In this document: positions 2,751 to 45,681 of the stretch, one piece after another
Numbering within the stretch: position 1 is the stretch's first letter
Layout of the letters: every line of letters begins with the position of its first letter
Source of the DNA: a virus
DNA length: 64,000 bases
Virus record (IMG/VR): IMGVR_UViG_3300045988_183322
Strand: one strand, 5' to 3'
Notes under the pieces: generated by a model
Databases searched by the model: none
What the model was told of the DNA's origin: nothing
What the model saw: only the letters and a program-made list of their open reading frames with translations
Made by a program: the position numbers and the translations under genes

Positions 2751-2912
2751 ATGAATACAAATAACATAATGTTAAGTACAGATGAAGAAATTCGTCCCGA
2801 AGGGAAAGAAGCATTAAATCGTCTTTATAAAAATAATAAAAATCTTTCTCTGGATGATAAGATAAATATGGAACCTATATACTTAAGTAGCCTTGTCGGT
2901 AAAAGACAGTAG
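2751..2912 (+). CDS. small ORF (53 aa) flanked by inverted repeat copies; coding status uncertain
   Basis: ATG at 2751; MNTNNIMLSTDEEIRPEGKEALNRLYKNNKNLSLDDKINMEPIYLSSLVGKRQ; below the ORF-track cutoff. Confidence 0.2.
   Translation: MNTNNIMLSTDEEIRPEGKEALNRLYKNNKNLSLDDKINMEPIYLSSLVGKRQ
2867..2892. repeat. left copy of perfect 26-bp inverted repeat (tatggaacctatatacttaagtagcc)
   Basis: Exact reverse complement of 7546-7571 (ggctacttaagtatataggttccata). Confidence 0.75.
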
Positions 2913-2925
2913 AATAGAGCAATGA

Positions 2926-3861
2926 TTATTTTTTCGTTTCTTCTTCCGTAGAATTTTCTAACAGTCTAATTTGAGAATACTCAATTATCTCTGGAAGATA
3001 AGGCAATGCTTTTTTGTCTTTTTTATCAAAATAACTTATCATCTTTTCCGGAATCCAGACTGTATAAAAATGTTTTCTAAAGTCCGCTAAAAGTCTATTA
3101 GGATAAAGCTTGGCCCGTACAACTCTTCCGTCCTCATAGCGATGATTATAAGTAGGAAAATCATTAGGCTCTTCACCATTTTGACGTAGCCAACGACAAA
3201 ACATTTTGCCTTGAGAAATATCGGGTACAAGATTTTCAGGAAGCTCATAACCTTTGTCTTCTAAGGGAGCAATCAAATTGAATGTAAGTTCGTTCAGTAT
3301 AGAGAAATGCGTCGGAGGTATTTCAGAACGGTTAGCTAAATAACGCCTCAAATGGTAAGGTAATTCTGCTTTTCCTTTTATACTTCCTGTCATCCATTCA
3401 CGAACCCATCTTGAAACTGCAACGGCGAATTTCGGAGAACACCATTGAGCTAGATGAATTGCTACGTCAGGATGAACCCATGTACCTTGTTGCCACTTGT
3501 TTCCTGCCTGTTTTTGAATGATAAGGGTCGTTACGGGAATTCCCGTAACGATAACCAACTCGTTAAGAAACTCTTTTGTATATTTAAGCCTAGAATAGTC
3601 ATTAAACTTTTTCCCTACGGCCTGACACATTGCGGTAGCATTAACGTATCCATCTGCCATTCTTTGGGGAATCAAGTCACCGTCTACTTCATGGGGGATA
3701 ATACGTAAATCGAGTAGGCTTTGGCCGTTTTCTTCCTGTAGTATTTTTCTTGTACGACCAATTTGTTCTTTTTCAGAACTTACAGAATCAGTAATCTTTT
3801 TTGTTACGTCATCAAAACTCGCCTCAATAGGCTGAATCTCTTCCTTATTTTTACGTGCCAT
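2926..3861 (-). CDS. KilA-N domain protein (Bro/KilA-like)
   Basis: N-terminal block DGYVNATAMCQAVGKKFNDYSRLKYTKEFLNEL...GTWVHPDVAIHLAQWCSPKFAVAVSRWVREW is a typical KilA-N/APSES DNA-binding domain; about 40% GC. Confidence 0.7.
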   Translation of the reverse strand: MARKNKEEIQPIEASFDDVTKKITDSVSSEKEQIGRTRKILQEENGQSLLDLRIIPHEVDGDLIPQRMADGYVNATAMCQAVGKKFNDYSRLKYTKEFLNELVIVTGIPVTTLIIQKQAGNKWQQGTWVHPDVAIHLAQWCSPKFAVAVSRWVREWMTGSIKGKAELPYHLRRYLANRSEIPPTHFSILNELTFNLIAPLEDKGYELPENLVPDISQGKMFCRWLRQNGEEPNDFPTYNHRYEDGRVVRAKLYPNRLLADFRKHFYTVWIPEKMISYFDKKDKKALPYLPEIIEYSQIRLLENSTEEETKK

Positions 3862-4870
3862 AATTTATTAATCGGTCAATTCTTTATAGGAAATATGCTT
3901 TCCATACATCATTTCGAAGGTTCTGTCAATGAAATTCATTGTTTCCCAAGACGCTGTATTATGTCTGAAAGCGAATTCTTGAATGTAGCGTTCAAGATGC
4001 TTGGAACTCATAAAATGATAAATGCCGTAATATCCTCGCTTTAGTAAAGCCCAAAAGCTTTCTATGCCGTTAGTATAGGCTTTCTGGTTAACATATTCAC
4101 CTACGGAATGGTTTACGGATAAATGATTGTATTTGTTTAAGCCTCGATAGGATTTGAAATCATCAGTATAGACGGTGGCCCCTACTACAACGTTATCTTC
4201 AATGAAACCATGAAGAGTTTTGGCAGTTACGTCCGGGGCATGCTTAACAACAACTTCTCCATTTCGTTGTTTGATACCAATAACAACCGCTTTCCCAACA
4301 CTGCCCCTGCCTTGCCTAAGTTTCTTCTTAGAATGCTTGTTGCTTTCCTTACCGCCAATGAAAGTTTCATCTACTTCCACTTCTCCATCAAGCTTATCGG
4401 AATCAGAAGATTCCTCGGTTTGTTTATTTAGCCATGCCTCCCTGATTCTCTGTGCCAAAAACCATGCTGATTTTTGCGTGATGCCAAGTTCTTTTGCCAT
4501 TTGAGTAGAAGGAATACCTTTCCGAGAGGAAGTCATCATGTAAATAGCGAGAAGCCATTTCTTAAGAGGAAGCCGCGATTCTTCTAAAACTGTTCCAGTT
4601 CTAACAGAGAAATGTTTTCGGCATTCTTTGCATCTATAAGGCATCGGCTTATGATTTTTGCATTCGGAAACTTTATGGCTTCCACAATGAGGACAGACAA
4701 TTGAGCCATTCCATCTTTTCTTTTCCAAGTAAAGACGGGCGGCTTCTTCATCTGGAAACTTCTGAAAGAAATCGTAGATGCTGACTATCTTCATGATGTT
4801 TACCTCCTTGTTTATCCAAAGAATAGCATAATATCATGGGTAGTCAAGTATTTTTTGGCTAGTTAAGTTC
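3862..4870 (-). mobile_element. IS1595-family (ISXO2-like) insertion sequence; termini not resolved
   Basis: Single transposase ORF. A partial copy of the cassette repeat (ggctagttaagt, 4857-4868) lies in its upstream region. The KilA-N ATG is only 6 nt after the transposase stop, so the right end is ambiguous. Confidence 0.5.
3868..4794 (-). CDS. IS1595-family transposase (ISXO2-like, DDE with N-terminal zinc ribbon)
   Basis: CPHCGSHKV...YRCKECRKHFSVRTGTVLEESRLPLKKWLLAIYMMTSSRKGIPSTQMAKELGITQKSAWFLAQRIREA is the hallmark ISXO2/IS1595 N-terminus; the downstream DDE region is conserved. Confidence 0.85.
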   Translation of the reverse strand: MKIVSIYDFFQKFPDEEAARLYLEKKRWNGSIVCPHCGSHKVSECKNHKPMPYRCKECRKHFSVRTGTVLEESRLPLKKWLLAIYMMTSSRKGIPSTQMAKELGITQKSAWFLAQRIREAWLNKQTEESSDSDKLDGEVEVDETFIGGKESNKHSKKKLRQGRGSVGKAVVIGIKQRNGEVVVKHAPDVTAKTLHGFIEDNVVVGATVYTDDFKSYRGLNKYNHLSVNHSVGEYVNQKAYTNGIESFWALLKRGYYGIYHFMSSKHLERYIQEFAFRHNTASWETMNFIDRTFEMMYGKHISYKELTD

Positions 4871-4908
4871 TCAATGTATTTCTTCATCTAAAGTAAGATA
4901 AAGAAAGG

Positions 4909-5841
4909 TTATTTTCCTTGACGTAATTTTCTGACTTCATTGACCTTCTGTTTGCTGAGAGGCCGACTTTCCAAAGAGAGATTAGCCATGAAGCCTTCCC
5001 AATAGTGGGTAAACTCTCTTGTATATCGGAAATCCACCCTTTTTGCCTCGTTCTTAAGTGTCGCTTCCCCCTTGAAGCAGTTAATATTCTTTTTGTCATT
5101 CACGACTTTCAGAGGGGTATCAGGAAGCAACATTTTCGTAATTACCAAAGCTTCTTCCTTGCTAATGCAAAACTCTTTTACTCCCTTGCGAATCTCAAGT
5201 CTGAAGCAAATATTCGATTTCGGAGTGAACAGGGCTTCTACCTTAAAAAATTCCCAGTCATCATTGCCCCAATGAAGCTTTGTAAGTCCTTCCTCTGTCT
5301 TGGATTTTTTCCCTCCCGGAAATTGAGCTTCTATTTTTTCGAGAGTCTCGCCTAATAGAGGAGAAGCCGGGAGTTTGATATCTTTTTCCGTGATGGTTTT
5401 CCCTATTTGCTGGGTTTTCAATAGAAGGTCATTATCTTTGACGGTAACTTTTTTCTCTTTTACAGAATAGTAGGTCTCAATGAACTTCGATTGATTTCTA
5501 GAACGCCCCTTGAACCCGTCGTCTTTCAATGAATATTGGAATTTGAAATCACCAGCAATATGCTCCTTTAGTAGATTCAAAGCTCCCGCTCTATTAGAAC
5601 AGTTGAAGAACTCCATTTTGAAGCATTTGTTCTGGAAGGTGAAATAGGCCTTTAGTTCCACTCCTTCCTTTTTCCATGTGAGGGTTTTGAAATCATGAGT
5701 GCCTCCGGCTTTTCCTTCCTTCCCTTCTCCCCACTTCTCATTCATTTTCTCAGGGGAATCTCCCAAATCGGCCTTAGCAGAAGGAAAAGCTGATAACAAA
5801 AGAGTTATCAAAATTGCGATATGATATGTTATTTTTTTCAT
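4909..5841 (-). CDS. secreted protein of unknown function (signal peptide, no lipobox Cys)
   Basis: N-terminus MKKITYHIAILITLLLSAFPSAKA reads as a signal peptide; Lys-rich mature part; about 40% GC. Confidence 0.5.
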   Translation of the reverse strand: MKKITYHIAILITLLLSAFPSAKADLGDSPEKMNEKWGEGKEGKAGGTHDFKTLTWKKEGVELKAYFTFQNKCFKMEFFNCSNRAGALNLLKEHIAGDFKFQYSLKDDGFKGRSRNQSKFIETYYSVKEKKVTVKDNDLLLKTQQIGKTITEKDIKLPASPLLGETLEKIEAQFPGGKKSKTEEGLTKLHWGNDDWEFFKVEALFTPKSNICFRLEIRKGVKEFCISKEEALVITKMLLPDTPLKVVNDKKNINCFKGEATLKNEAKRVDFRYTREFTHYWEGFMANLSLESRPLSKQKVNEVRKLRQGK

Positions 5842-5926
5842 GCGTATAGCGGAGTTGTTTCTTTCGAATAAAAAACGCCCCTTCTTCCAAAATCAGAAAA
5901 AGGGACGTTCAGTCATGCTTTGAGAA

Positions 5927-6565
5927 TTAAAAATCCCAGCTAAATCCTGCCTCAATGGCATGCCATACAAGAGCATTTGAACCCGCAATCATACACTCGT
6001 ACCCTAGCACGAATTTTACATGTTCGCTGATTGCAAAATTGAATCCTGCATTAGCAGTAAACATTCCCACAATCTGGCTTACCTTCGCTCCTTTGGTCAA
6101 ATTAAAGCTTCCCCGGCTCTCTATACTCGTAAAGGCTATGCCTCCTTTCACGCCAAGATAGAAAGAAGCGGCGTCAGACATGGGAAGGTAGAGAGTATAT
6201 CCACCCAAAACAGGAATCAGTTTTCTCTTCTGATGAAGGGTTCCATAGTAGGTAGCTTCAAAATTATCACTCCCTGTCATATAACCTGACATTAATGAAA
6301 ATTGATGAATAACAGATTCAGTAGCTACGTTTTGATGAATGTCCAAGAGAGCACCCGCTAAGTTCGGTTGGTACAATTCAGAAGTCCAAGCATAAACCCC
6401 TTTTACTCCTATACCAAAACCGGATTGTTCGTAAGCTTGACTGTAAGACCTCGATTTCTTCTGAGAACTACCAGCCCAATAGTATTCCCAAGGATTATCA
6501 TAAGCGTGTGCGGTACATGAGAGGCCCAGAAGCCCCAAACTGGCTATGATGGTTTTCGTGTTCAT
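5927..6565 (-). CDS. small outer-membrane beta-barrel protein (Lom/Ail/OmpX-like moron)
   Basis: Signal peptide MNTKTIIASLGLLGLSCTAHA, alternating amphipathic strands, C-terminal GFSWDF with terminal Phe typical of OMP barrels; 212 aa; about 42% GC. Confidence 0.6.
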   Translation of the reverse strand: MNTKTIIASLGLLGLSCTAHAYDNPWEYYWAGSSQKKSRSYSQAYEQSGFGIGVKGVYAWTSELYQPNLAGALLDIHQNVATESVIHQFSLMSGYMTGSDNFEATYYGTLHQKRKLIPVLGGYTLYLPMSDAASFYLGVKGGIAFTSIESRGSFNLTKGAKVSQIVGMFTANAGFNFAISEHVKFVLGYECMIAGSNALVWHAIEAGFSWDF

Positions 6566-6720
6566 GATGTTTTTAGGTCAATATGTTCTCTGAATACGGC
6601 CTCACAATAGAAGAATCCATATCTTCATTGAAGGCTAATGTCATTCATTGTGGTTAAATTAGACATTCATTGAGCGATTGTCAATCATGCTATGCTCAAA
6701 ATCTTTGATTCATCATCACA

Positions 6721-7095
6721 ATGAGCAAAGTTCCTTACATGGAAGAACCTCTTGTGAATATTTTAGAGTTAGGACGTTGGATGACGGAAAATCAGATAAG
6801 CCGAGCAACATTGGCTTCGGCTATTGGCATGAACAGAAGTGCCATTGATAACTATTTTGTCCGTAAAAAGCTTCCTAGGCACGCTCAAATCCTCATTAAA
6901 AGATTCATGGACGGTCAGGAAGCCGTCTTTGCCTCAAATGAGATAACTTCCCTCATTACTATCCCTCTTAGCAACCGAGTAATTAATCTTGCCATGAAAG
7001 CCGCCGTTGAAAAAAACGTCACGATGGAAGAGTTTGTGGGGTGGGCTGTTGAAAGGACGGCAAAGAAAATTGTGGAGGGAAGCGGGTGTAATTAG
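6721..7095 (+). CDS. two-domain transcriptional regulator: N-terminal HTH plus C-terminal ribbon-helix-helix (Arc/CopG-like)
   Basis: HTH LASAIGMNRSAIDNYF. RHH fold ITIPLSNRVINLAMKAAVEKNVTMEEFVGWAVERTAKKI (beta strand plus two helices). Paralog of 51807-52271. Confidence 0.55.
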   Translation: MSKVPYMEEPLVNILELGRWMTENQISRATLASAIGMNRSAIDNYFVRKKLPRHAQILIKRFMDGQEAVFASNEITSLITIPLSNRVINLAMKAAVEKNVTMEEFVGWAVERTAKKIVEGSGCN

Positions 7096-7175
7096 AAAGA
7101 AAGGGGGGCTAATTTCTATGTCTGCAGTTAAGCTTTTTAGATTGAATCACTCTAAAAGCTAGTATAGAAGAACGC

Positions 7176-7451
7176 ATGACTATTACTGCGGCGTTTATGC
7201 AAAAACAAGGGATAAATTTCGTAGTTATCCCTGTTAAATATAGGGCGATGGATACTCCTGAAAAAGCAAAAAGAACTATTGAGGGATTTCGTTCAGCGAT
7301 AGCAAATTTTTCAGAGCTTCCTCTGATTTTAGCCACTCAGAATTCACATGGAGACTCTGTATATTGGGGAGAACCGCGCGTGGTAAGGATGCTTCGGAAC
7401 ATGTCTGTTTCTGAATTTTCTTGGAAGGAGTACAAACTCGAACGTAGATAA
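7176..7451 (+). CDS. hypothetical protein
   Basis: ORF only. Confidence 0.25.
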   Translation: MTITAAFMQKQGINFVVIPVKYRAMDTPEKAKRTIEGFRSAIANFSELPLILATQNSHGDSVYWGEPRVVRMLRNMSVSEFSWKEYKLERR

Positions 7452-7545
7452 AATCATCTTCTTTACATTCAACCATAGCAATTCCCAAATCTTTATCTCC
7501 ATCTATATTACACCAAAAGGTGCATAAGCATATCTCATGATGCGC

Positions 7546-7571
7546 GGCTACTTAAGTATATAGGTTCCATA
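7546..7571. repeat. right copy of perfect 26-bp inverted repeat; itself part of a 10-bp-stem hairpin (7551-7582)
   Basis: ggctacttaagtatataggttccata; cttaagtatat...atatacttaa flanks the aggttccataa loop. Confidence 0.75.
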
Positions 7572-7742
7572 AATATACTTAAAGAACGTCTTTATTCTGA
7601 CTTTACTTATTGTTTCTTTGATGGAGATGCGTCATTAACACCTGATAAAGCGAAAGAGAGAATTGTCGCAAATTTAGAATTTGATTATTTAGTTAAAGAA
7701 GGATTGGCAGCAGTTGTAGAATTATAATAAGATGCCTTTAGT

Positions 7743-32777: not shown

Positions 32778-35700
32778 TTAAATTAAAAATGGACTAAAAG
32801 TAGATGAAGTCTTTTCTTTCTTTCGATTCATCATATCAAAATATAGATGTATTCCCCAATTCCCCAAAACCAAAGTAGAATAAGAATCTTTTCGCGCTTT
32901 ATTTGGAGAACGGCTTTTCCGTAAATTTTCTGGTAAATCAAAAGTTTGCGTTCCTGATGCACTTTGCCTAGGATTTATCATTGTGCACTCTGTTTTAGTC
33001 ATTTCAATGACTTCCTTTTGGCGTTCAATAAAATCAACAATTGATGGAGATTCAATATTTCTTGAAAATTTTAAGTTTTTGAGTTCGGGTATTCTCATTT
33101 TACTCATTGTCCTGAAATCTTCATCTATTGCGGCGGCGGCAAAATAAATACCTTTATGGTCGAAAGCACTCTGCAACATTTCATTAGCCTGTCTAATCCA
33201 TTGAGTGCTTTGCTTTCTAAGATGACAGATTTTCTTTTCTTCTAAATTATATTCATTTCTCAATTTATATAATTCATCATTATATTTTGTTTGGTCTTCT
33301 GCGTCAAACTCTAAAAGGCCAATATCTATTTTTGCGTCTTTAAACTCTTGGCTTTGATTACAAGCTTTAATAAATTGTAAACCACCATTGTAGTCGCCAA
33401 CAACCATAACAACATTAAAATGTTCTAAAACATATTTGAAATATAGTATATGTTTATGTAGAGGCGTTCCCGGAATAGCATATGCATGGACTAAAACTCC
33501 TTTCTTTTCTTCTTCTAATAATCTAAACACTTGTATAGAAAAGTTATCAGAAGATTCTGATTCTGACCAAGACGGGTCGATAGATACTAAATATTTTGCT
33601 TTGGGGTCTCCTACAATTTCTACGCAATATCCATCTCCTTCTTCAAAAGTACATTGAATCATTTTGGACATTTTAAAATATCCAGCAGAATCATCCGTAA
33701 ATACGGAACCAAACTCTCTAGCAAATTGAGCTTCTGACATGGTTTCTTGAGATTCTTTAATCAATTTCTCGTCATAAATACCAGTAGGAATTATTTTGTA
33801 TGAAGTATGGAATATCGCCCTAGTAGCATCATCTCCGTCTTCATATTTCTGTTTTTCGGCCATTATCAATTTTTCATATTCACAATAGACTTTATATATA
33901 TATTCAAACTTAAATCCTGCTGATGATAACAAAATAATTTTGTTAGAAGAGAACTTTGTCCTTTCTTCTTCTTTCATTTTTCCCGTAGCAACTAACTCGT
34001 CTTCTAATGCTTTGATAGACGCAATTTTTGTTGGGTCTGCATTCGCCGCCAAGAAAGGTTTAATGACTTCATTGTAAATTCTTTCAGGCATTAATAAGAA
34101 TTCGTCAATAATAACTACATTGAATCGGAAGCCTCTCAATTTTTGACCATCTCCCAATGGAATAGCCATAATAGAGCTTTTACCAATATCAATGCTCCAT
34201 TGGTCGGTTCCTTTGTTTACCCCTTTTGTATTTACCGCTTGATGGAATAAAGTAGCTTCTTTTGTGAGCATTATATCTTCAAGCTTTTTAATAATTGTTT
34301 TCGATTGTCTAAAGGATGCGGAAATGATACCTATTTTAACGCCTTGTTCGAAAATCGCATATAGTGCGGCAAAAATAGCCGTGGAGAAAGAATTATGATT
34401 GATGATACCATCGGAAACATAACAATGTTCATCAGCTACTTGAATATCCACTGTTATATCTTCACTCTCAAACGTTTCTTTCACTTCTTCGAAGAAAAAA
34501 TCTTCTCTTGCCAATTGGGAAATTTTTTCAAAATCTTCTGTATCAACAAAGCTCCATTTCTTAGACTGCTCTAACAAATTTCTCAAGCCTCTTTGTGGAT
34601 GGAATTTTCTAAATGTCAGTTTATAATGCTCTGAATGCCCAAATGCAAACTTACTGAAAGCTGATTTTTTATATTTCTTTTTAAGATAAGGCCCAACATA
34701 AGGGACGTAATCACAAAAATAATCTTTGCGCTCTCTAGTAACAAATTTATTTAATCGTTCTATTTTTCTTTGGGTAGCAAATCCAATTTGTTCATTAAAC
34801 TTTATCACATCGGAATAACCAGTGATAGAAATAGTTTTTGCTGGTAAACAATCATAAACTTTATCATTTCCAAACTTAGATTTTCCTCCTTTGAATGAAA
34901 TATAAGTTCGCGATTTAATCCCGAACATTAGCAATAAATTTTTGACAAGCTCTATCAGTTCTTCTGATGTAGAAGTAAAACCTATTGTTCCATTAAACCG
35001 CTTTTCTGTACCCCTATTCCTACTTCCTAAAGAGCAATATCCATCTGTATCATACAAGCCCCTTATAAAGGCCGTCAGACATTCTTTTGAGGCATTGGTC
35101 AAAGGGAGAGGAAGAGACTTCTCATTCGCTTTAACAATTCTAAAACCAATCTTTTCTAAAAATTGAACAAATATTTTACTTGTCGCTCTTATCTCATAAG
35201 TATTGTTTCCTTTATCAATTTTATTATAATGGAGACTTAATTTGTTGAAAAACTCTTCGAGAAAAACAATAATTTCTGGCTCTTGATTTGTTATCGAAAC
35301 CAAGTTTTCGCTCATGCACCCATCTCCAAGAAGTAATCCAAAGAAATAATACCAATCCTCTAAGGAAGCATTTTTAGGATAGAACTGTTTCGCATTAAAA
35401 TGAATGTCTTTTTCATTTTCGTCTCTAAAATCCCATCCAATAGAAGGAAACTCATATCCTCCTTTCTTCATCACCAAAACTTCCCCAACCTTAATGTCTT
35501 TGACAAATTTCCACTCTGCTTCAAGAGTTTCTGGATTCAGTATTTGAACTCGGTGATAATCTAATCCCTCGCATTCATATCCACCTTTAGTTCTAACGCC
35601 ATAAGTTTTTTCTTTTGGATTAACAACTTTATCCTCGACTAAATTATATCCATTTTTAGAAAGAATCTTATCGCCAACTTCAATATCAATAATTCGTTTT

Positions 35701-35990
35701 AATCCTTTATCTGATTGCACTAAACCATTATGTTTAAGACATTTAGAACTTGCTCGACTAAGAATTCCCATGAAATAATCAGTATTAAACATCCCCTTAA
35801 TCAACATATGTTGAAATGGAAAAAGTTTAACTCCTAAAAGAATATTTGAGGCAAAAGTAGGGTCATTTCTTAAAAACTCTGTTAAAGTTACTTTAGCTGT
35901 TTTATCATCTAAAAAACCTTCGAGTTTTTTTGCTTCTTCTAAAGTATTAACAATAGGTGTCCTTTTTTGATTTCCTTCAATCCAACTCAT
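32778..35990 (-). CDS. terL: terminase large subunit, interrupted by an intein
   Basis: Exteins carry the ATPase P-loop GILSRASSK|[intein]|SFS, Walker B VVIIDEF and the C-terminal nuclease region. Without the intein the protein is about 620 aa. Confidence 0.8.
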   Translation of the reverse strand: MSWIEGNQKRTPIVNTLEEAKKLEGFLDDKTAKVTLTEFLRNDPTFASNILLGVKLFPFQHMLIKGMFNTDYFMGILSRASSKCLKHNGLVQSDKGLKRIIDIEVGDKILSKNGYNLVEDKVVNPKEKTYGVRTKGGYECEGLDYHRVQILNPETLEAEWKFVKDIKVGEVLVMKKGGYEFPSIGWDFRDENEKDIHFNAKQFYPKNASLEDWYYFFGLLLGDGCMSENLVSITNQEPEIIVFLEEFFNKLSLHYNKIDKGNNTYEIRATSKIFVQFLEKIGFRIVKANEKSLPLPLTNASKECLTAFIRGLYDTDGYCSLGSRNRGTEKRFNGTIGFTSTSEELIELVKNLLLMFGIKSRTYISFKGGKSKFGNDKVYDCLPAKTISITGYSDVIKFNEQIGFATQRKIERLNKFVTRERKDYFCDYVPYVGPYLKKKYKKSAFSKFAFGHSEHYKLTFRKFHPQRGLRNLLEQSKKWSFVDTEDFEKISQLAREDFFFEEVKETFESEDITVDIQVADEHCYVSDGIINHNSFSTAIFAALYAIFEQGVKIGIISASFRQSKTIIKKLEDIMLTKEATLFHQAVNTKGVNKGTDQWSIDIGKSSIMAIPLGDGQKLRGFRFNVVIIDEFLLMPERIYNEVIKPFLAANADPTKIASIKALEDELVATGKMKEEERTKFSSNKIILLSSAGFKFEYIYKVYCEYEKLIMAEKQKYEDGDDATRAIFHTSYKIIPTGIYDEKLIKESQETMSEAQFAREFGSVFTDDSAGYFKMSKMIQCTFEEGDGYCVEIVGDPKAKYLVSIDPSWSESESSDNFSIQVFRLLEEEKKGVLVHAYAIPGTPLHKHILYFKYVLEHFNVVMVVGDYNGGLQFIKACNQSQEFKDAKIDIGLLEFDAEDQTKYNDELYKLRNEYNLEEKKICHLRKQSTQWIRQANEMLQSAFDHKGIYFAAAAIDEDFRTMSKMRIPELKNLKFSRNIESPSIVDFIERQKEVIEMTKTECTMINPRQSASGTQTFDLPENLRKSRSPNKARKDSYSTLVLGNWGIHLYFDMMNRKKEKTSSTFSPFLI
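34392..35741 (-). other. intein (450 aa) with LAGLIDADG homing-endonuclease domain inside the terL P-loop
   Basis: Starts with Cys (CLKHNG...) right after Walker-A Lys; LAGLIDADG blocks LLGDGC and LYDTDGY; ends VSDGIINHN followed by extein Ser+1. Confidence 0.75.
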
Positions 35991-40512: not shown

Positions 40513-41175
40513 ATGGCTTATAATATCTTTATCCAAAAACAAAAAAACAAATATTGTGTAGTTTTTCCTAAATGTGGATGGACTTTATTCCATACTCATT
40601 GCAGGGGGCAAGCAAATTTTATATATGTCAATAGCAATCAATTTCCTGCGCAAAAGGTGCACATAGACGCTTTTTTTATCAGACATCCAGTAGATAGAAT
40701 TATTTCAGGATTTAAAAATAAGTATTTAGATAATCCAGATAAAGATATATGGACAAGAGACTGGCTAATAAAAATAATGAATTTACAGACGAAAGAGCAA
40801 ATTAAGAATATATCATTCGACCAATTTTTAGATAGATTACAAGAATTAGTTTTTTTTGGTCAAAATGATTTCAAGACTGTTTTTTTTAGAAGTAATGCTC
40901 CTGATAATTATTGGGACACCCATTTCTGTCCATTATCTTACCAATTAAGATTCTTTCCACAAAAAGAAATGAACTTTTTTGATATTAGAAAAGATTTAGA
41001 TTATCTAGATTATTTAGGAATAAATTACTCTATTAAACATAATTCGTCTTCTCATATTGCTTTTGAAGCAACACCTGAACAAAAAAAAAGAATAGAAGAA
41101 ATTTACAAAGATGATATGATATTATATAAAAAATATGAAAAAGATAGAGCTAATCGGCAAATAATAAGCTCATAA
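40513..41175 (+). CDS. sulfotransferase (PAPS-dependent)
   Basis: 5'-PSB-like VVFPKCGWTLF (PKSGTTW) and 3'-PB-like RHPVDRIISGF (RNPKDVAVSYY) motifs. Confidence 0.6.
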   Translation: MAYNIFIQKQKNKYCVVFPKCGWTLFHTHCRGQANFIYVNSNQFPAQKVHIDAFFIRHPVDRIISGFKNKYLDNPDKDIWTRDWLIKIMNLQTKEQIKNISFDQFLDRLQELVFFGQNDFKTVFFRSNAPDNYWDTHFCPLSYQLRFFPQKEMNFFDIRKDLDYLDYLGINYSIKHNSSSHIAFEATPEQKKRIEEIYKDDMILYKKYEKDRANRQIISS

Positions 41176-41194
41176 AATTTAAGAATCCATAACA

Positions 41195-42007
41195 ATGAAA
41201 GATATAGAAAAAATAGCTTTTGATGTGATAACAGAAGCTTATAGAAAAGCTTCTAATTTAACCCTGCTATGTTCTTTTGGGAAAGATAGCCAAGTATTAC
41301 TTCATATGTTGGAAATGCATGATTTTCTTAAGAGAACGAAAATATTGTACATAGATTCAACCTTTGAATTCAAGGAGCTTTATGAACATAAAGATTTCTT
41401 ATTGAAAAAATATGATATTTCCTATAGGAATTTTATCGTAGCAAAAAATAAAGAATCTATTGCTGATGGATTAAATTATGATAATACTTCTATTTTTGAG
41501 CTGACAGAAAAATTAAAAACGATACCTCTCAATCAATCAATCAATCAACATAATATTGACTTTCTCATTACTGGAATAAGAAGAGATGAAGAAGGTTCTC
41601 GAGCTAAAGAAAGATATTTTAGCGTTCGTGACGAAAATGGAAGATATAATCCTATTGACAATAAGCCGGAGTTTTTCCCAATCTTAGGCAAAAACTTATA
41701 TCCTCTCAAAAATGGCGGTCATTATAGAGTTAATCCTCTTCTTGACTGGACGGAATATGATATATGGGAATATATTAACGAATATGGATTGAAGGTGTGC
41801 CCTTTGTATTTTTCGGAGAATGGTAAAAGGTATCGGTCTTTAGGAGATGCCCCTGTGACAACTCCTATAGAATCTAATGCTTGCACCCCAGAAGAAATTA
41901 TATTAGAATTGGCGGCAACAAAAACGCCAGAAAGAGCGAGTAGAGCACCCCAAGACAATGCTACTCCTTATTGTATGGAAAAATTAAGACAAAATGGATT
42001 TTGTTAA
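41195..42007 (+). CDS. cysD: sulfate adenylyltransferase subunit 2 (CysD/NodP-like, PAPS reductase fold)
   Basis: PP-loop LCSFGKDSQVLLHM and GIRRDEEGSRAKERYFSVRDENGRYNP...W matching the CysD core RRDEE.SRAKER.FSFRD. Confidence 0.8.
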   Translation: MKDIEKIAFDVITEAYRKASNLTLLCSFGKDSQVLLHMLEMHDFLKRTKILYIDSTFEFKELYEHKDFLLKKYDISYRNFIVAKNKESIADGLNYDNTSIFELTEKLKTIPLNQSINQHNIDFLITGIRRDEEGSRAKERYFSVRDENGRYNPIDNKPEFFPILGKNLYPLKNGGHYRVNPLLDWTEYDIWEYINEYGLKVCPLYFSENGKRYRSLGDAPVTTPIESNACTPEEIILELAATKTPERASRAPQDNATPYCMEKLRQNGFC

Positions 42008-42711
42008 TGAGAAAGAAAATTTATATAGTAGTTTGCGGATTAGTCGATAGCGGAAAATCTTCTTTCATTAGAAAGGCGACGGAGTTTATTGCTGGTAGAG
42101 AATTGAATCCTGATGCACTCTGTGTCGAACAAGAAACTGGAAAAACGATAGTTAATACAAAGGTATCTTGCCCTCTTAATAACAAAGAAGAAATAGTATT
42201 TATTGATTGCCCCGGGCATTTGGAATATTATCCAGAAATAATTTCCGCCTTTTGCATGGCTGATGCGGCTATTCTCATTAAAGATGGAAAGAGATTGGAA
42301 GAATCAGAAGATTATCTGGAAGAAATTAGGTTAGATTTATTGAAGCTTAATATCCCTATCATTGGAGAATATACTTCTCACTCTTTATTCCATGATAGAT
42401 ATTCTTATGAAATTGAAGAAGAAATTACCTTTTCAAAAGTTTGCAATGATTTTCTCAAAAAAATAGATATATTTACAAATGATTTTAATGTGGTATTTTT
42501 TGAAGATAATTGGGGAATAAATAAAAAGGTATGTTTGTACTCTGAGACTGGAATAATTATCTCCGATATAGCTTGGGGTGATTGGGAAGATATCAAATAT
42601 GCAGTTCAAGAGTTTGATATTTCATCTGAAAAAAATGTATCTCGAAGAATATTAGTTTGCGATGCAGAAGATAAATCTAAAATATTGGGACTTATAATTA
42701 TTCGACGATGA
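42007..42711 (+). CDS. CysN/EF-Tu-like GTPase, G-domain only (truncated sulfate adenylyltransferase subunit 1 homolog)
   Basis: G1 VVCGLVDSGKSS, G3 DCPGH; only about 235 aa (no domains II/III); TAATG overlap with cysD stop. The ORF-track start 41971 is upstream. Confidence 0.55.
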   Translation: MRKKIYIVVCGLVDSGKSSFIRKATEFIAGRELNPDALCVEQETGKTIVNTKVSCPLNNKEEIVFIDCPGHLEYYPEIISAFCMADAAILIKDGKRLEESEDYLEEIRLDLLKLNIPIIGEYTSHSLFHDRYSYEIEEEITFSKVCNDFLKKIDIFTNDFNVVFFEDNWGINKKVCLYSETGIIISDIAWGDWEDIKYAVQEFDISSEKNVSRRILVCDAEDKSKILGLIIIRR

Positions 42712-43172
42712 TTCTACTTTTAACTGGGAAAAGCGGTGCTGGTAAAACTACTATAGCGAAAGGGATGGCTTGTATTTATCAGAATGTTGTGCTTTTAGAT
42801 GGGGACGAACTAAGAGAGGGCTTAAATTCTGACCTTGGATTTTCTGATGAAGACATAATGGAAAATATGAGAAGAGTTTCTTCTTTAGCGAAACTTCTTT
42901 CAGAACAAAAATATTTTGTTGTTGTCTCTATGATTGCGCCCCTTTTAGAGGGAAGGAAAATGTTTAAGGGGGAAGACTCTTGGGAAATCCTTATTCAACA
43001 ATCAAAATGCGAAGAAAGGGACGTGAAAGGGCTTTATAAGAAAGGAACCCAATTTAGAGAATATGAAATGGGCGGTGCAGACTACGTTCTCAATGTGGAT
43101 GAAAAATTTGTTCGAGATTGTATTTGGGAAATAGAAGTAAATACTTTTGGTAGTGAAAAATCTGACTGGTAA
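42708..43172 (+). CDS. cysC: adenylylsulfate (APS) kinase
   Basis: LLLTGKSGAGKTTIA P-loop and LDGDELREGLNSDLGFSDEDIMENMRRV, characteristic of CysC. Confidence 0.8.
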   Translation: MILLLTGKSGAGKTTIAKGMACIYQNVVLLDGDELREGLNSDLGFSDEDIMENMRRVSSLAKLLSEQKYFVVVSMIAPLLEGRKMFKGEDSWEILIQQSKCEERDVKGLYKKGTQFREYEMGGADYVLNVDEKFVRDCIWEIEVNTFGSEKSDW

Positions 43173-43422
43173 CGAAAGACGATATTATAGAATAAAAAAC
43201 TCTCTTAGTTGGTTAAATGAACCACCCGGTGCGATGTTGGAGCAACTAAGAAGAAATCACAAAGAATTCAAAATTCTTGGAAAGATTCCAGAAAATAATT
43301 TCGGCAAAAAAGTTCCTCCTGAATTTAAACGTTTAATGCAAGAGTTGAGAGATGATATGGAAAAAGCACAAAAGTTTGTTAAGGAAATGGAAGAGAAAGG
43401 GTATGGGGTGGATAAAAGATAG
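43147..43422 (+). CDS. hypothetical protein
   Basis: ORF only. Confidence 0.25.
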   Translation: MVVKNLTGNERRYYRIKNSLSWLNEPPGAMLEQLRRNHKEFKILGKIPENNFGKKVPPEFKRLMQELRDDMEKAQKFVKEMEEKGYGVDKR

Positions 43423-43590
43423 AATAGATGATTTATTGTTCCCTTTTAAAAGAAAGAAAAATAATTCAACAAATGATAGATGGATTAAAAAGGAAATACG
43501 CAATAAACCTTACAAAAAGAACGATGAAGATTCTTAGAGTCTTGGTATGCTATTGAATTTTTCTATAAAATTTTAGCACTACGTATTCTA

Positions 43591-43941
43591 TCATGGACGC
43601 TGAATTACTTCTACAATATGCTCTTGAGCATTAATAGTAATAATAAGATTTGCTTTTCTATAGTCTTTAGTGGCATTAGCTTGATAGTCTATGTTTAACG
43701 CATAATAATGAAGATTATCCATATCTGACCCACCTAGTAGCTCTATTTTAAGCCAACTTTCCGAAGATACAGCAGTAATATCTGTACAGTCAGATGTCAA
43801 AGTTTGGGAGATTGACCCGGAGTAACGAGATAACTCAGGAATCGTGGGTGTTTCAACAAATCCATCAATGATGACTATATCTAAATTCCCTTTGTCAGGA
43901 TGTTGAATAATTCCTTCTTTTTTCAAATTTTCGTATCTCAT
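43591..43941 (-). CDS. hypothetical protein
   Basis: ORF only. Confidence 0.3.
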   Translation of the reverse strand: MRYENLKKEGIIQHPDKGNLDIVIIDGFVETPTIPELSRYSGSISQTLTSDCTDITAVSSESWLKIELLGGSDMDNLHYYALNIDYQANATKDYRKANLIITINAQEHIVEVIQRP

Positions 43942-43999
43942 GATTTAAAATATATAAACTAAATCTTTCTTTTCTTTGATATTCGTGTTGTTGGGAGAA

Positions 44000-44194
44000 T
44001 TATCGCGGCTGTTCCGTTTGGGCGGAGCAGGAACAGGGGCGGCCCGGTTCCACGAAGTGGACGCGGTCATGAAACTCGCCCTGTTTGCCGGCGTTGAAAG
44101 TTTCCACAGGGCGGTGATAGCCCATGACGCGCGTGTAAACGGTGCAGCGGGTCCGGTCCTGTGCGTATTTGCTTAATATTTCCTGTTTGGTCAT
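44000..44194 (-). CDS. small protein resembling the C-terminal glycyl-radical domain of anaerobic ribonucleotide reductase NrdD (GC-rich island)
   Basis: TRVMGYHRPVETFNAGKQGEFHDRVHF fits the NrdD C-terminal consensus RV.GY......N.GK..EF..R..H (glycyl radical site). About 60% GC over 43985-44175 in a 30% GC genome. Confidence 0.35.
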   Translation of the reverse strand: MTKQEILSKYAQDRTRCTVYTRVMGYHRPVETFNAGKQGEFHDRVHFVEPGRPCSCSAQTEQPR

Positions 44195-44445
44195 TGTCGT
44201 ATTAATGGTTGGGTTTGAAGTCGGGCATCTATTAAAAAAAGGATTTTTTTGTCAAACTTTTTTAGATGCACTAAGTATTTTTCTAGTTTCTTCAGATTGA
44301 CTTTTTCTCGTAGTTTCAGTTTTAATTCTTTTATGGAAACTTCTTCTAATGGCTCTTCTGATTTATTTAGAGAATCGTAGCATATAGCTTCTACAACAAC
44401 ATATTCGCCTTCCTCATACTCTACGTCATTTATTTCAACTTTCAT
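44191..44445 (-). CDS. hypothetical protein
   Basis: ORF only. Confidence 0.25.
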   Translation of the reverse strand: MKVEINDVEYEEGEYVVVEAICYDSLNKSEEPLEEVSIKELKLKLREKVNLKKLEKYLVHLKKFDKKILFLIDARLQTQPLIRQ

Positions 44446-44455
44446 ACTAATATGA

Positions 44456-44854
44456 TTACATTATCCATGAAGGTTTTTTCACCTCTGTAACAACAATAGT
44501 TTGTAGCCATTCAGGCGGCTCTATTTGATTCCAATGATGCTTTATCCAAACAGGTTCAATATTGGTATATTTTTTCAAATTAATACATAACTCAAAGTCA
44601 TCATCAAAATGTTTTGTTACAGGAGTATTTAAATGAGTGAGCCAAAAAACTTTAGATTCTCTTCCAGTAGCGAATATTCTTATGTCAGGGAAAAATTCTC
44701 TGACTATACTTAATTCATATTCGTATCTATACGTCGTAATACAAAGTTCCGCTCCAGTTTTCTTCATATTAGAGAAAAGCTTATAAGTATTTCCTATAAG
44801 ATTCTCCTTGTGTGGATTGTATAAAGTATAATCAAAATCCCAAGAAATCATCAC
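44456..44854 (-). CDS. HAD-superfamily hydrolase-like protein (possible 5'(3')-deoxyribonucleotidase)
   Basis: N-terminal ISWDFDYTL matches HAD motif I (DxDxT); small size typical of phage NT5C-like enzymes. Confidence 0.4.
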   Translation of the reverse strand: MMISWDFDYTLYNPHKENLIGNTYKLFSNMKKTGAELCITTYRYEYELSIVREFFPDIRIFATGRESKVFWLTHLNTPVTKHFDDDFELCINLKKYTNIEPVWIKHHWNQIEPPEWLQTIVVTEVKKPSWIM

Positions 44855-44891
44855 TTAAATCTTTTAGTTTTAAAGTTGTTCCTCATATGAA

Positions 44892-45470
44892 CTATTCATT
44901 TCTAATTAAAAAATCTTCTATCATCGAAGTTGTGGCAACAAAAATATCTGTTCCATTTTTCTTTAAAATACTGGATATATCTTCTCGATAGTGTTCTATT
45001 TTTATTAAAGGAAATAATACTTCATTAATAGATTTTTCAATATTTTTAAAAGCTAATTTGCATTTCTTTAAATATCCTTCGTCGCGTTTATAGTAATCCT
45101 TAACCGTTTTTTTTGAAATAGAAAAAGGACAATTTATTGTAAAAGAATATTCTTTAATATTATCATTTTCGAAATTTAAAGAAAAACCTTTTAAAGAATC
45201 AGACTCGTCATCTCTATAATGAATTCCTGCCCGACCGAATCCATTATATTTATCTAAGATTTCAAGAGCAATAGACTCAATTAAAATTACTTCTTCTTTA
45301 TTATTAAAAGTTTTAACTTTTTCGCTCGAATTGAATTCTTGAAGAAATTTTTCCCAAAAATTCGTTCTCACTTCATAGATTTTTATGAGTTTTTCAATTC
45401 TTTCTTCTGAATCGGCAATATATCTTTTTGCCCATTCGTCTTTTTCAATTTTCATTTTTCCAGTATTCAT
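44892..45470 (-). CDS. hypothetical protein
   Basis: ORF only. Confidence 0.3.
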   Translation of the reverse strand: MNTGKMKIEKDEWAKRYIADSEERIEKLIKIYEVRTNFWEKFLQEFNSSEKVKTFNNKEEVILIESIALEILDKYNGFGRAGIHYRDDESDSLKGFSLNFENDNIKEYSFTINCPFSISKKTVKDYYKRDEGYLKKCKLAFKNIEKSINEVLFPLIKIEHYREDISSILKKNGTDIFVATTSMIEDFLIRNE

Positions 45471-45681
45471 TTATACGATTGATAACTTCTTCATTATTAT
45501 TTTTCGACATTTCAAAACACAATTCTTCATCAGATAAAGATTTAAAGATTAGATTGCATCCATCTTTTTCGACTAAATAAAATTGCTCTTTATTAAAATT
45601 TGCCTCAATTTTTTTATTTCTTATATTGACCCAAAAATAGGTTCCATCTTTTAAGTATATTTTTAATTTATTATTTTTCAT
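45445..45681 (-). CDS. hypothetical protein
   Basis: ORF only. Confidence 0.25.
   Translation of the reverse strand: MKNNKLKIYLKDGTYFWVNIRNKKIEANFNKEQFYLVEKDGCNLIFKSLSDEELCFEMSKNNNEEVINRINEYWKNEN

Follow-up and report, generated by a model that had tools for sequence, protein, structure and literature searches.

A tailed phage carries a recently captured Akkermansia gene predicted to encode the glycyl-radical subunit of a two-piece class III ribonucleotide reductase

The DNA analyzed here is a stretch of 64,000 nucleotides (nt) from the IMG/VR virus record IMGVR_UViG_3300045988_183322, referred to below, at its full length, as the window. At about 44 kb it contains a short island of high guanine-plus-cytosine (GC) content, and we found that this island is a recent horizontal capture of one complete Akkermansia muciniphila gene, together with its 5′ spacer, by a tailed phage with a genome of about 160 kb and a GC content of 33%. 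The captured gene is a minus-strand open reading frame (ORF) of 64 amino acids (aa), and its product is the predicted small, radical-bearing subunit of a class III ribonucleotide reductase (RNR) whose catalytic chain is divided between two genes in the donor. The features of the ORF are as follows.

44000..44194, minus strand: 64-aa ORF, predicted small glycyl-radical-bearing subunit of a two-piece class III RNR, assigned from a Pfam NRDD match and from identity to an Akkermansia protein
44054..44155, minus strand: conserved core, residues 14-47, R..C....RVMGYHRPV..FN.GK..E...R..F, with columns invariant in the bacterial and viral alignments
44120..44122, minus strand: GGC codon of Gly25, the predicted radical glycine of RVMGY, read directly and aligned with the glycine of RVTGY in a one-piece NrdD

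The product of the ORF has the sequence MTKQEILSKYAQDRTRCTVYTRVMGYHRPVETFNAGKQGEFHDRVHFVEPGRPCSCSAQTEQPR, of which a first-pass annotation of the window, made from the letters alone, had quoted only the first 47 residues. Its match to the Pfam NRDD family (PF13597) scored 33.6 bits against a gathering score of 26.2 and covered profile positions 532-562 of 562, that is, the last 31, while TIGR02487 was matched at positions 549-580 of 581 with an E value of 2.9e-7, far under the full-length cut-off, as expected for 64 aa. In BLASTP, the protein aligned to residues 723-748 of a one-piece NrdD of 756 aa (L114) through RVTGY...FNAGK...DRV. This significant similarity confirms the earlier proposal that the peptide corresponds to the extreme C-terminus of class III RNR, and both RVMGY, with Gly25, and FNAGK were invariant in our alignments (A3 and A4). 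The ten-stranded barrel, the finger-loop cysteine and the allosteric sites of a complete NrdD are absent from these 64 residues, which cover only the last 31 profile positions. The overlapping plus-strand ORF at 43976..44176, which the annotation had allowed might be the conserved one, matched no family and is the antisense of the conserved gene. A PDB sequence search with phmmer returned no NrdD chain, its sole match being a chance one to a member of glycoside hydrolase family 16. We also observed that Cys17, which precedes the radical glycine by eight residues, does not vary across the two-piece family (alignments A3 and A4) and that C-terminal endings of the form CxC or CC are common among the small subunits; these cysteines may take part in metal binding together with a C..H...CxxC motif of the body.

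We examined 16 Akkermansia loci. The small ORF was followed directly by a gene for the radical S-adenosylmethionine activase in all of them, and a called 698-aa protein lay directly upstream in 15, with no gene call at that place in L016. This 698-aa NrdD body comprises an ATP-cone and the barrel, matches NRDD profile positions 2-536 of 562, and terminates in CPFCDEELLHIHRHE and its stop codon, 12 residues past the CPFC zinc-ribbon motif and ahead of any glycyl loop. Since the body accounts for positions 2-536 and the small ORF for positions 532-562, the Akkermansia NrdD is two-piece, with the small protein as its sole radical domain; the division of this class III RNR into two polypeptides is known here from the genes. 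In L001 (5947-6003), the small ORF is in frame with the nrdD body, with one TAA and 17 sense codons between them. A. muciniphila has both NrdJ, which depends on cobamides, and NrdDG, the cobamide-independent enzyme (PMC7733943).

The same layout was found well beyond Akkermansia. A scan with one genome per bacterial species yielded at least 589 loci, of which 80 were fetched: an NrdD body was directly upstream of the small ORF in 72, nrdG was downstream in all but two, nearly always directly, and only three looked fused. In many of these loci, the body and the small ORF overlap but are read in different frames, and simple read-through is thereby excluded as a general explanation for those taxa, though not for the same-frame layout of Akkermansia. 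The taxa with this layout include, besides Akkermansia, Campylobacter concisus, Arcobacter, Sulfurospirillum, Helicobacteraceae, Flavobacterium and Chitinophagaceae, as well as Vogesella, Aquabacterium, Omnitrophota and Lentisphaeria. Among 1.84 billion representative sequences searched with a profile, the family had 3,875 members, counted as representatives at 50% identity, and the best 150 were all between 49 and 112 aa long. In the open-access literature, we found no description of a two-piece NrdD, of an NrdD spare part or of this phage.

The phage copy stands out in base composition, with 58% GC in 44000-44199 and 29-33% in the flanks. In 150-bp windows the island reaches a GC fraction of 0.64, compared with a window mean of 0.334 (standard deviation 0.057) and a next-highest peak of 0.527 in the 64 kb; at about five standard deviations, the island, which the first-pass annotation had already described as sharply GC-rich, is thus the only one of its kind in the window. 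Its extent is wider than the 43976-44200 given there, and the insertion, its parts and its neighbors are as follows.

43951..44253, no strand: insertion of 303 bp in this phage lineage, with an empty site in a sister phage that is 96-98% identical on both sides
43986..44250, minus strand: captured A. muciniphila segment, 96.2% nucleotide identity over 265 bp, GC 58-64%
43951..43985, no strand: AT-rich linker (about 35 nt) that separates the Akkermansia segment from the phage gene that follows, without counterpart in Akkermansia or the sister phage
44191..44445, minus strand: upstream 84-aa phage ORF, which has lost its stop codon and ends in an ATGA overlapping the start of the small ORF
43591..43941, minus strand: downstream 116-aa phage ORF with a weak BACON-like match (E 3.5e-4, under the gathering score)

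The origin of the insert is evident at both the protein and the nucleotide level. The 64-aa protein is 100% identical to the product of the small ORF that Akkermansia genomes carry between their nrdD body and nrdG, including a match in a metagenome-assembled genome (MAG) labeled 'uncultured Akkermansia sp.', and a 98%-identical variant is named 'MULTISPECIES ... [Akkermansia]'. Nucleotide comparison of the island with host genomes, which the annotation had recommended, gave 96.2% identity over 265 bp to L001:5945-6209 and to seven other Akkermansia loci, with 93-94% identity in other Akkermansia lineages. In gene orientation, the captured DNA starts in the final bases of the nrdD body, includes the stop of that gene, and continues through a 51-nt spacer and the small ORF to 14 nt past the stop of the small ORF. 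At 10 of its 265 positions it is distinct from each of the Akkermansia alleles sampled. The suggestion of a horizontally acquired gene fragment was therefore correct as to horizontal transfer, but the gene is complete and naturally separate rather than a fragment. The further suggestion, that the island is the 3′ exon of a split nrdD, is not supported, since neither an nrdD body nor nrdG, nor any intron, turned up in the window or the 10 kb past either end; the division into body and small ORF is that of the donor bacterium, not of the phage. The annotation had correctly stated that no catalytic body lies alongside the peptide, and a search for an nrdD without its C-terminus found none in the approximately 84 of approximately 160 kb of the phage genome that were covered.

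The sister IMG/VR contig 3300045988_183135 (L017/L019) preserves the site without the insertion: the bases corresponding to window positions 44254 and 43950 are directly joined, and the stop codon of the upstream ORF lies 15 nt short of the next gene. The insertion thus consists of 265 bp of host DNA and the linker, and no second copy of this 35-38-nt linker was found in the window. As a result of the insertion, the original stop of the 84-aa ORF is gone, so that the ORF now extends about 24 codons beyond the last residues alignable to the sister ORF, the final 19 or so within the captured DNA. The small ORF is on the same strand as both the 84-aa and the 116-aa neighbors, and the ATGA overlap between the upstream stop and its own start suggests translational coupling. 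Eleven phage contigs (this and 10 others), nearly identical over 1.2 kb around the island, all carried the 64-aa ORF intact, with V45I as the single variant. In phage contigs the ORF was left uncalled by most gene callers. The 84-aa protein that spans the junction had an exact copy in 166 index blocks, compared with 145-164 for other genes of the phage, and 23 contigs on which we read it came from unrelated samples and assemblers, which excludes an assembly chimera. Judged by these block counts, the island is essentially fixed in the phage lineage. A scan for promoters and terminators around the island gave signals at chance level only. A structured RNA or tRNA was also considered as the cause of the island and rejected, as Rfam gave no match at E<=1 over 43000-45500 and the window contains no tRNA.

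Homologues of the small ORF, 54-74% identical, were present at 243 loci in IMG/VR, 80 of which were fetched. They are short stand-alone ORFs with an invariant core and a GC content matching that of their own contigs (29-51%), and neither an NrdD body nor NrdG was detectable within 8 kb of them, 22 of the 80 loci being at least 7.5 kb from both contig ends. The combination of native GC and an invariant core across the viral copies indicates that purifying selection maintains this minigene in phages of several host groups, and beside these copies the one in the window is a fresh, independent capture. In L032, for example, the homologue lies between a tail-fiber gene and a DUF5675 gene, and in L094, a phage contig of 183 kb with 29% GC, it is situated among PRTase, HD-kinase and HAD genes of nucleotide metabolism. 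The window protein and five viral homologues matched PHROG 4132, a family of 'unknown function', with E values from 7e-6 to 8.5e-19. The nearest bacterial relatives of the viral copies are small subunits of the Campylobacter, Flavobacteria and Lentisphaeria types. Larger parts of the system also occur in viral contigs: L112 (208 kb, 33% GC) has a whole split-type operon, consisting of a body with an insertion, the small ORF and nrdG, while L110 and L111 (IMG/VR, 160-196 kb, 43% GC) encode an NrdD body 77% identical to that of Akkermansia, with an insertion of about 700 bp inside it and neither the small ORF nor nrdG within 5 kb.

Two observations on the distribution of the small ORF may be added. 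At L155-L158, L172, L174 and L179, in Campylobacter MAGs, no NrdD body was detectable upstream of it, L174 also being without nrdG. Several viral copies have their closest relatives (81-93% identity) among these orphan ORFs, which are probably prophage-borne. In L082, L086, L099, L107 and similar proviruses with 47-51% GC, the small ORF stops precisely where the contig does, with a tyrosine integrase about 2 kb away. These proviruses may use the small nrdD gene of their host as an integration site, or the ORF may belong to the host flanks.

In class III RNR, NrdG generates the radical on the C-terminal glycine of NrdD, and in glycyl radical enzymes O2 cleaves the chain at the radical glycine; for pyruvate formate-lyase (PFL), the lost domain is replaced by YfiD or by Y06I of phage T4 (PMC8683613, PMC12288474, PMC13450708). 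By analogy with these spare parts, we consider it reasonably probable that the captured ORF is an auxiliary metabolic gene (AMG) that supplies fresh radical subunits to the NrdD body of the host, to be activated by the host NrdG. During infection, the phage would make extra small subunit, which would dock into the host NrdD body and be activated there by host NrdG. When O2 cleaves at the radical glycine of a two-piece enzyme, only the 7-kDa piece would be lost and the body spared, which would make the small subunit the consumable part. The subunit supplied in this way could sustain cobamide-independent anaerobic synthesis of deoxyribonucleoside triphosphates for phage replication at the micro-oxic mucus surface. 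Since the phage protein is identical to that of the host, it cannot be an inhibitory variant and can only raise the supply of the subunit, and we therefore propose that it would re-arm the host NrdD body during infection. More tentatively, a wider picture can be drawn, in which a two-piece class III RNR found in many phyla would hold its radical on a dissociable, built-in spare part of about 6-7 kDa, and phages of Akkermansia, Campylobacter, Flavobacteria and other hosts would have captured this subunit alone, repeatedly, to re-arm the enzyme of the host.

The likeness to GrcA (YfiD) of E. coli and Y06I of T4 lies in a small free-standing copy of the C-terminal glycyl-radical domain of a large enzyme, encoded by a phage in one of the two validated examples (Y06I), and in the proposed logic, by which the piece destroyed by O2 would be replaced and then re-activated by the host activase (PMC8683613). 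Unlike those proteins, which are about 127 aa long and serve PFL, the window peptide has 64 aa and a class III RNR as its partner; it belongs to NRDD (PF13597), a Pfam scan at E<=1 returned no Gly_radical match, and among NCBIfam models only those of NrdD were matched. The first-pass annotation had listed a GrcA-style spare part among its suggestions. As a function this is the most plausible one, but with an NRDD match and none to the PFL-type Gly_radical family, the relation to GrcA is one of analogy and not of family membership. A further difference is that the donor protein is not an extra copy, since the enzyme there is constitutively two-piece and has no other radical domain. According to reviews, including one of 2026, spare-part proteins are known only for formate lyases (PMC13450708).

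The peptide shares with the one-piece NrdD/NrdG systems of E. coli, T4, T. maritima and P. copri the signature R-V-x-G-Y ... F-N-x-G-K ... E ... R at the end of the profile and, in the donor, nrdG as operon partner. The one-piece enzymes differ in bearing the radical loop on their own polypeptide, whereas the phage has only that piece, and the residue before the glycine is Met (RVMGYHRPV), as opposed to RVTGY in L114. In the canonical E. coli-type NrdD, this motif reads RVCGY. Division of an RNR catalytic chain over two consecutive ORFs is shared with the split class II enzyme NrdJa/NrdJb of Pseudomonas aeruginosa and Thermus phage phiYS40, and phage nrd genes split by introns or inteins have also been described (PMC9669993, PMC3653736). 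In the literature we found nothing closer to the two-piece NrdD than these. Those systems, however, either are cut in class II or owe their division to mobile introns, inteins or homing endonucleases, whereas the two-piece NrdD is a class III enzyme split exactly ahead of the radical domain, with no mobile element, and the phage has the small piece alone. A looser parallel is offered by cyanophage psbA, whose product D1 is the fastest-damaged and most-replaced subunit of its host complex and is expressed from the phage copy during infection. There, as may be the case here, a phage copy of a consumable subunit keeps host metabolism running, though in a different pathway.

Among the other explanations, the one that fares best, although we think it rather unlikely, is that the ORF is a neutral passenger, in which case the 303-bp insertion would be the scar of a recent illegitimate recombination with host DNA, would bring no benefit and would decay. 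Such a scar would be expected to look much as the island does: its GC has not shifted toward that of the phage, it is 96% identical to host DNA and missing from a sister phage 96-98% identical, most gene callers pass over its ORF, promoter- and terminator-like signals do not exceed chance, and the unexplained linker of about 35 nt suggests messy joining. A random scar would not, however, readily account for a capture that took, from a genome of about 2.8 Mb, one 195-nt gene with no more than 56 nt in front of it and 14 nt behind it. The intact ORF in 11 of 11 phage contigs, its apparent fixation by block counts, the ATGA overlap of its start with the upstream stop, and the many unrelated phages that independently keep invariant-core homologues at their own GC likewise speak against a passenger.

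It is very unlikely that the phage encodes a class III RNR of its own, with an nrdD body, and possibly nrdG as well, in another part of the genome, for which the island would be the missing C-terminal piece. Large viral contigs with such genes do exist, as L112 with its whole operon and L110 and L111 with the body demonstrate. In this phage, however, there was no similarity to an NrdD body or NrdG in the 64-kb window, no NRDD or Radical_SAM family among the genes in the 10 kb past either end, no intron and no Rfam match, and neither sister IMG/VR contig was among the viral loci related to the Akkermansia body. Furthermore, the sister phage has no island, from which it follows that the lineage has no need of it for an RNR of its own. 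Even less probable is a non-coding role, in which the 265 bp of host DNA would act as a homology patch for recombination with the host nrdD locus, through integration or marker exchange. At 96% identity the segment would be long enough for RecA-dependent exchange, and several IMG/VR homologues of the L082 type indeed lie at the very end of a provirus, with an integrase about 2 kb away; yet all 16 Akkermansia nrdD loci were uninterrupted from body through small ORF to nrdG and free of phage DNA, there was no integrase beside the island, and each contig that we read was either phage or host throughout. Misjoining of Akkermansia reads into a phage contig, for which only the co-occurrence of the two in samples speaks, is refuted by the recurrence of the junction ORF in 166 index blocks across different projects and assemblers, by phage DNA on both flanks, and by an insert that matches no sampled Akkermansia allele exactly.

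The phage most likely infects Akkermansia, as suggested both by the island and by a second element in the window.

2862..7572, no strand: IS1595-family element of 4.7 kb, comprising OMP_b-brl (an outer membrane protein beta-barrel), a 310-aa ORF, a transposase and a KilA-N/BstA_C gene

This element is 99.94-99.96% identical to copies in L204 and L205, whose flanks encode Akkermansia HypB and glutamate decarboxylase, and further copies adjoin Akkermansia RecJ, HisD and a CRISPR (clustered regularly interspaced short palindromic repeat) locus. It is polymorphic in the phage, being absent from the relative L330. Movement of this element between the phage and Akkermansia chromosomes, in combination with the captured gene, speaks for replication of the phage in Akkermansia. 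Because BstA is known to act in abortive infection, a defense gene may be traveling with the element between phage and host.

Several points weigh against a phage-supplied radical subunit. Both the phage copy and the bacterial two-piece enzyme are known here at the level of genes, and the inspection for nrdD and nrdG covered only about 84 of the approximately 160 kb of the phage genome. AlphaFold2, applied to the isolated peptide with an alignment of 33 sequences, gave a model of low confidence (mean predicted local distance difference test score 58, predicted template modeling score 0.23), a hairpin with Gly25 at its tip whose confidence was too low for a fold search, although a low score may be what is expected of a loop that folds only inside its partner. 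The ORF differs from the nearest sampled host allele at three positions, all synonymous (GTG/GTA at Val30, TTT/TTC at Phe41 and TGT/TGC at Cys54, with further differences in the 5′ spacer), which may be mere donor variation, and the phage copies are almost invariant, so that the capture is too recent for selection to be measured. Some of the IMG/VR homologues are at provirus ends and may be host genes; 11 of the 80 are no more than 200 bp from a contig end, and these may represent host flanks or genes proximal to attachment (att) sites. Phage and host differ in GC content by about 23 points, an unusually wide gap that also speaks against Akkermansia as the host. Finally, spacers gave no support for this host: using the Akkermansia type I-C repeat GTTTCAATCCACGCACTCCTTGCGGAGTGCGAC from L201 (L201:5929-7903), we collected 115 arrays (L209-L328, from metagenomes) with 1,567 unique spacers of this one CRISPR type, and none of them matched the window, which is 40% of the phage genome, beyond shuffled controls, the best full-length matches having 7-10 mismatches. 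Short clustered matches were due to a common AAGGAAA motif resembling a ribosome-binding site. Approximately 10% of the 1,567 spacers have a GC content of at most 35%, which indicates that Akkermansia does meet AT-rich elements. We also noted several spacers with a AGAAAGGAAATAAAACAATG motif that resembles the ribosome-binding region of AT-rich phages and without a full-length match in the window.

Andorfer et al. (2021) asked whether spare-part proteins exist for glycyl radical enzymes beyond PFL (PMC8683613). If the proposed role is true, the captured ORF would be the first spare part known outside PFL among glycyl radical enzymes and would represent a new class of very small AMG, the window would show the capture event almost as it occurred, and genes of 60 aa that gene callers often skip would count as real metabolic genes of phages. 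The locus offers a class III RNR candidate that can be cloned, as three Akkermansia genes plus the phage allele, and a widespread two-piece architecture appears to be hidden under the database label 'anaerobic ribonucleoside-triphosphate reductase'. PHROG 4132, an unannotated family whose tie to the two-piece NrdD is made here, gains a likely function. In addition, a probable host can be assigned to this abundant, uncultured phage (about 160 kb, 33% GC), namely A. muciniphila, a species of medical interest with few known virulent phages.

The window identifies the virus as a tailed phage through a 2,561-aa tape measure protein, the large terminase listed below and a D12 DNA methyltransferase. 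A genome size of about 160 kb follows from a 173-kb IMG/VR sister contig, in which the sequence at one end recurs at the other with an offset of 159.6 kb. Among the deposited phages in INPHARED, the phage has no close relative: there was no megablast match to the island region and no tblastn match to the small protein or to a typical viral homologue, and a 675-aa window ORF of unassigned function matched a Microcystis phage at only 23% identity. Two further features of the window are listed here.

32778-35990: large terminase (1,070 aa), split by an intein that includes a LAGLIDADG endonuclease domain
40513-43172, plus strand: genes for sulfotransferase-like, PAPS_reduct/CysD-like and GTP_EFTU/CysN-like proteins and adenosine 5′-phosphosulfate kinase

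The 40513-43172 cluster is a module for synthesis of 3′-phosphoadenosine 5′-phosphosulfate and for sulfation, in a phage whose probable host degrades mucin. With this cluster right beside the island, the interval from 40.5 to 45.5 kb looks like an auxiliary-gene region.

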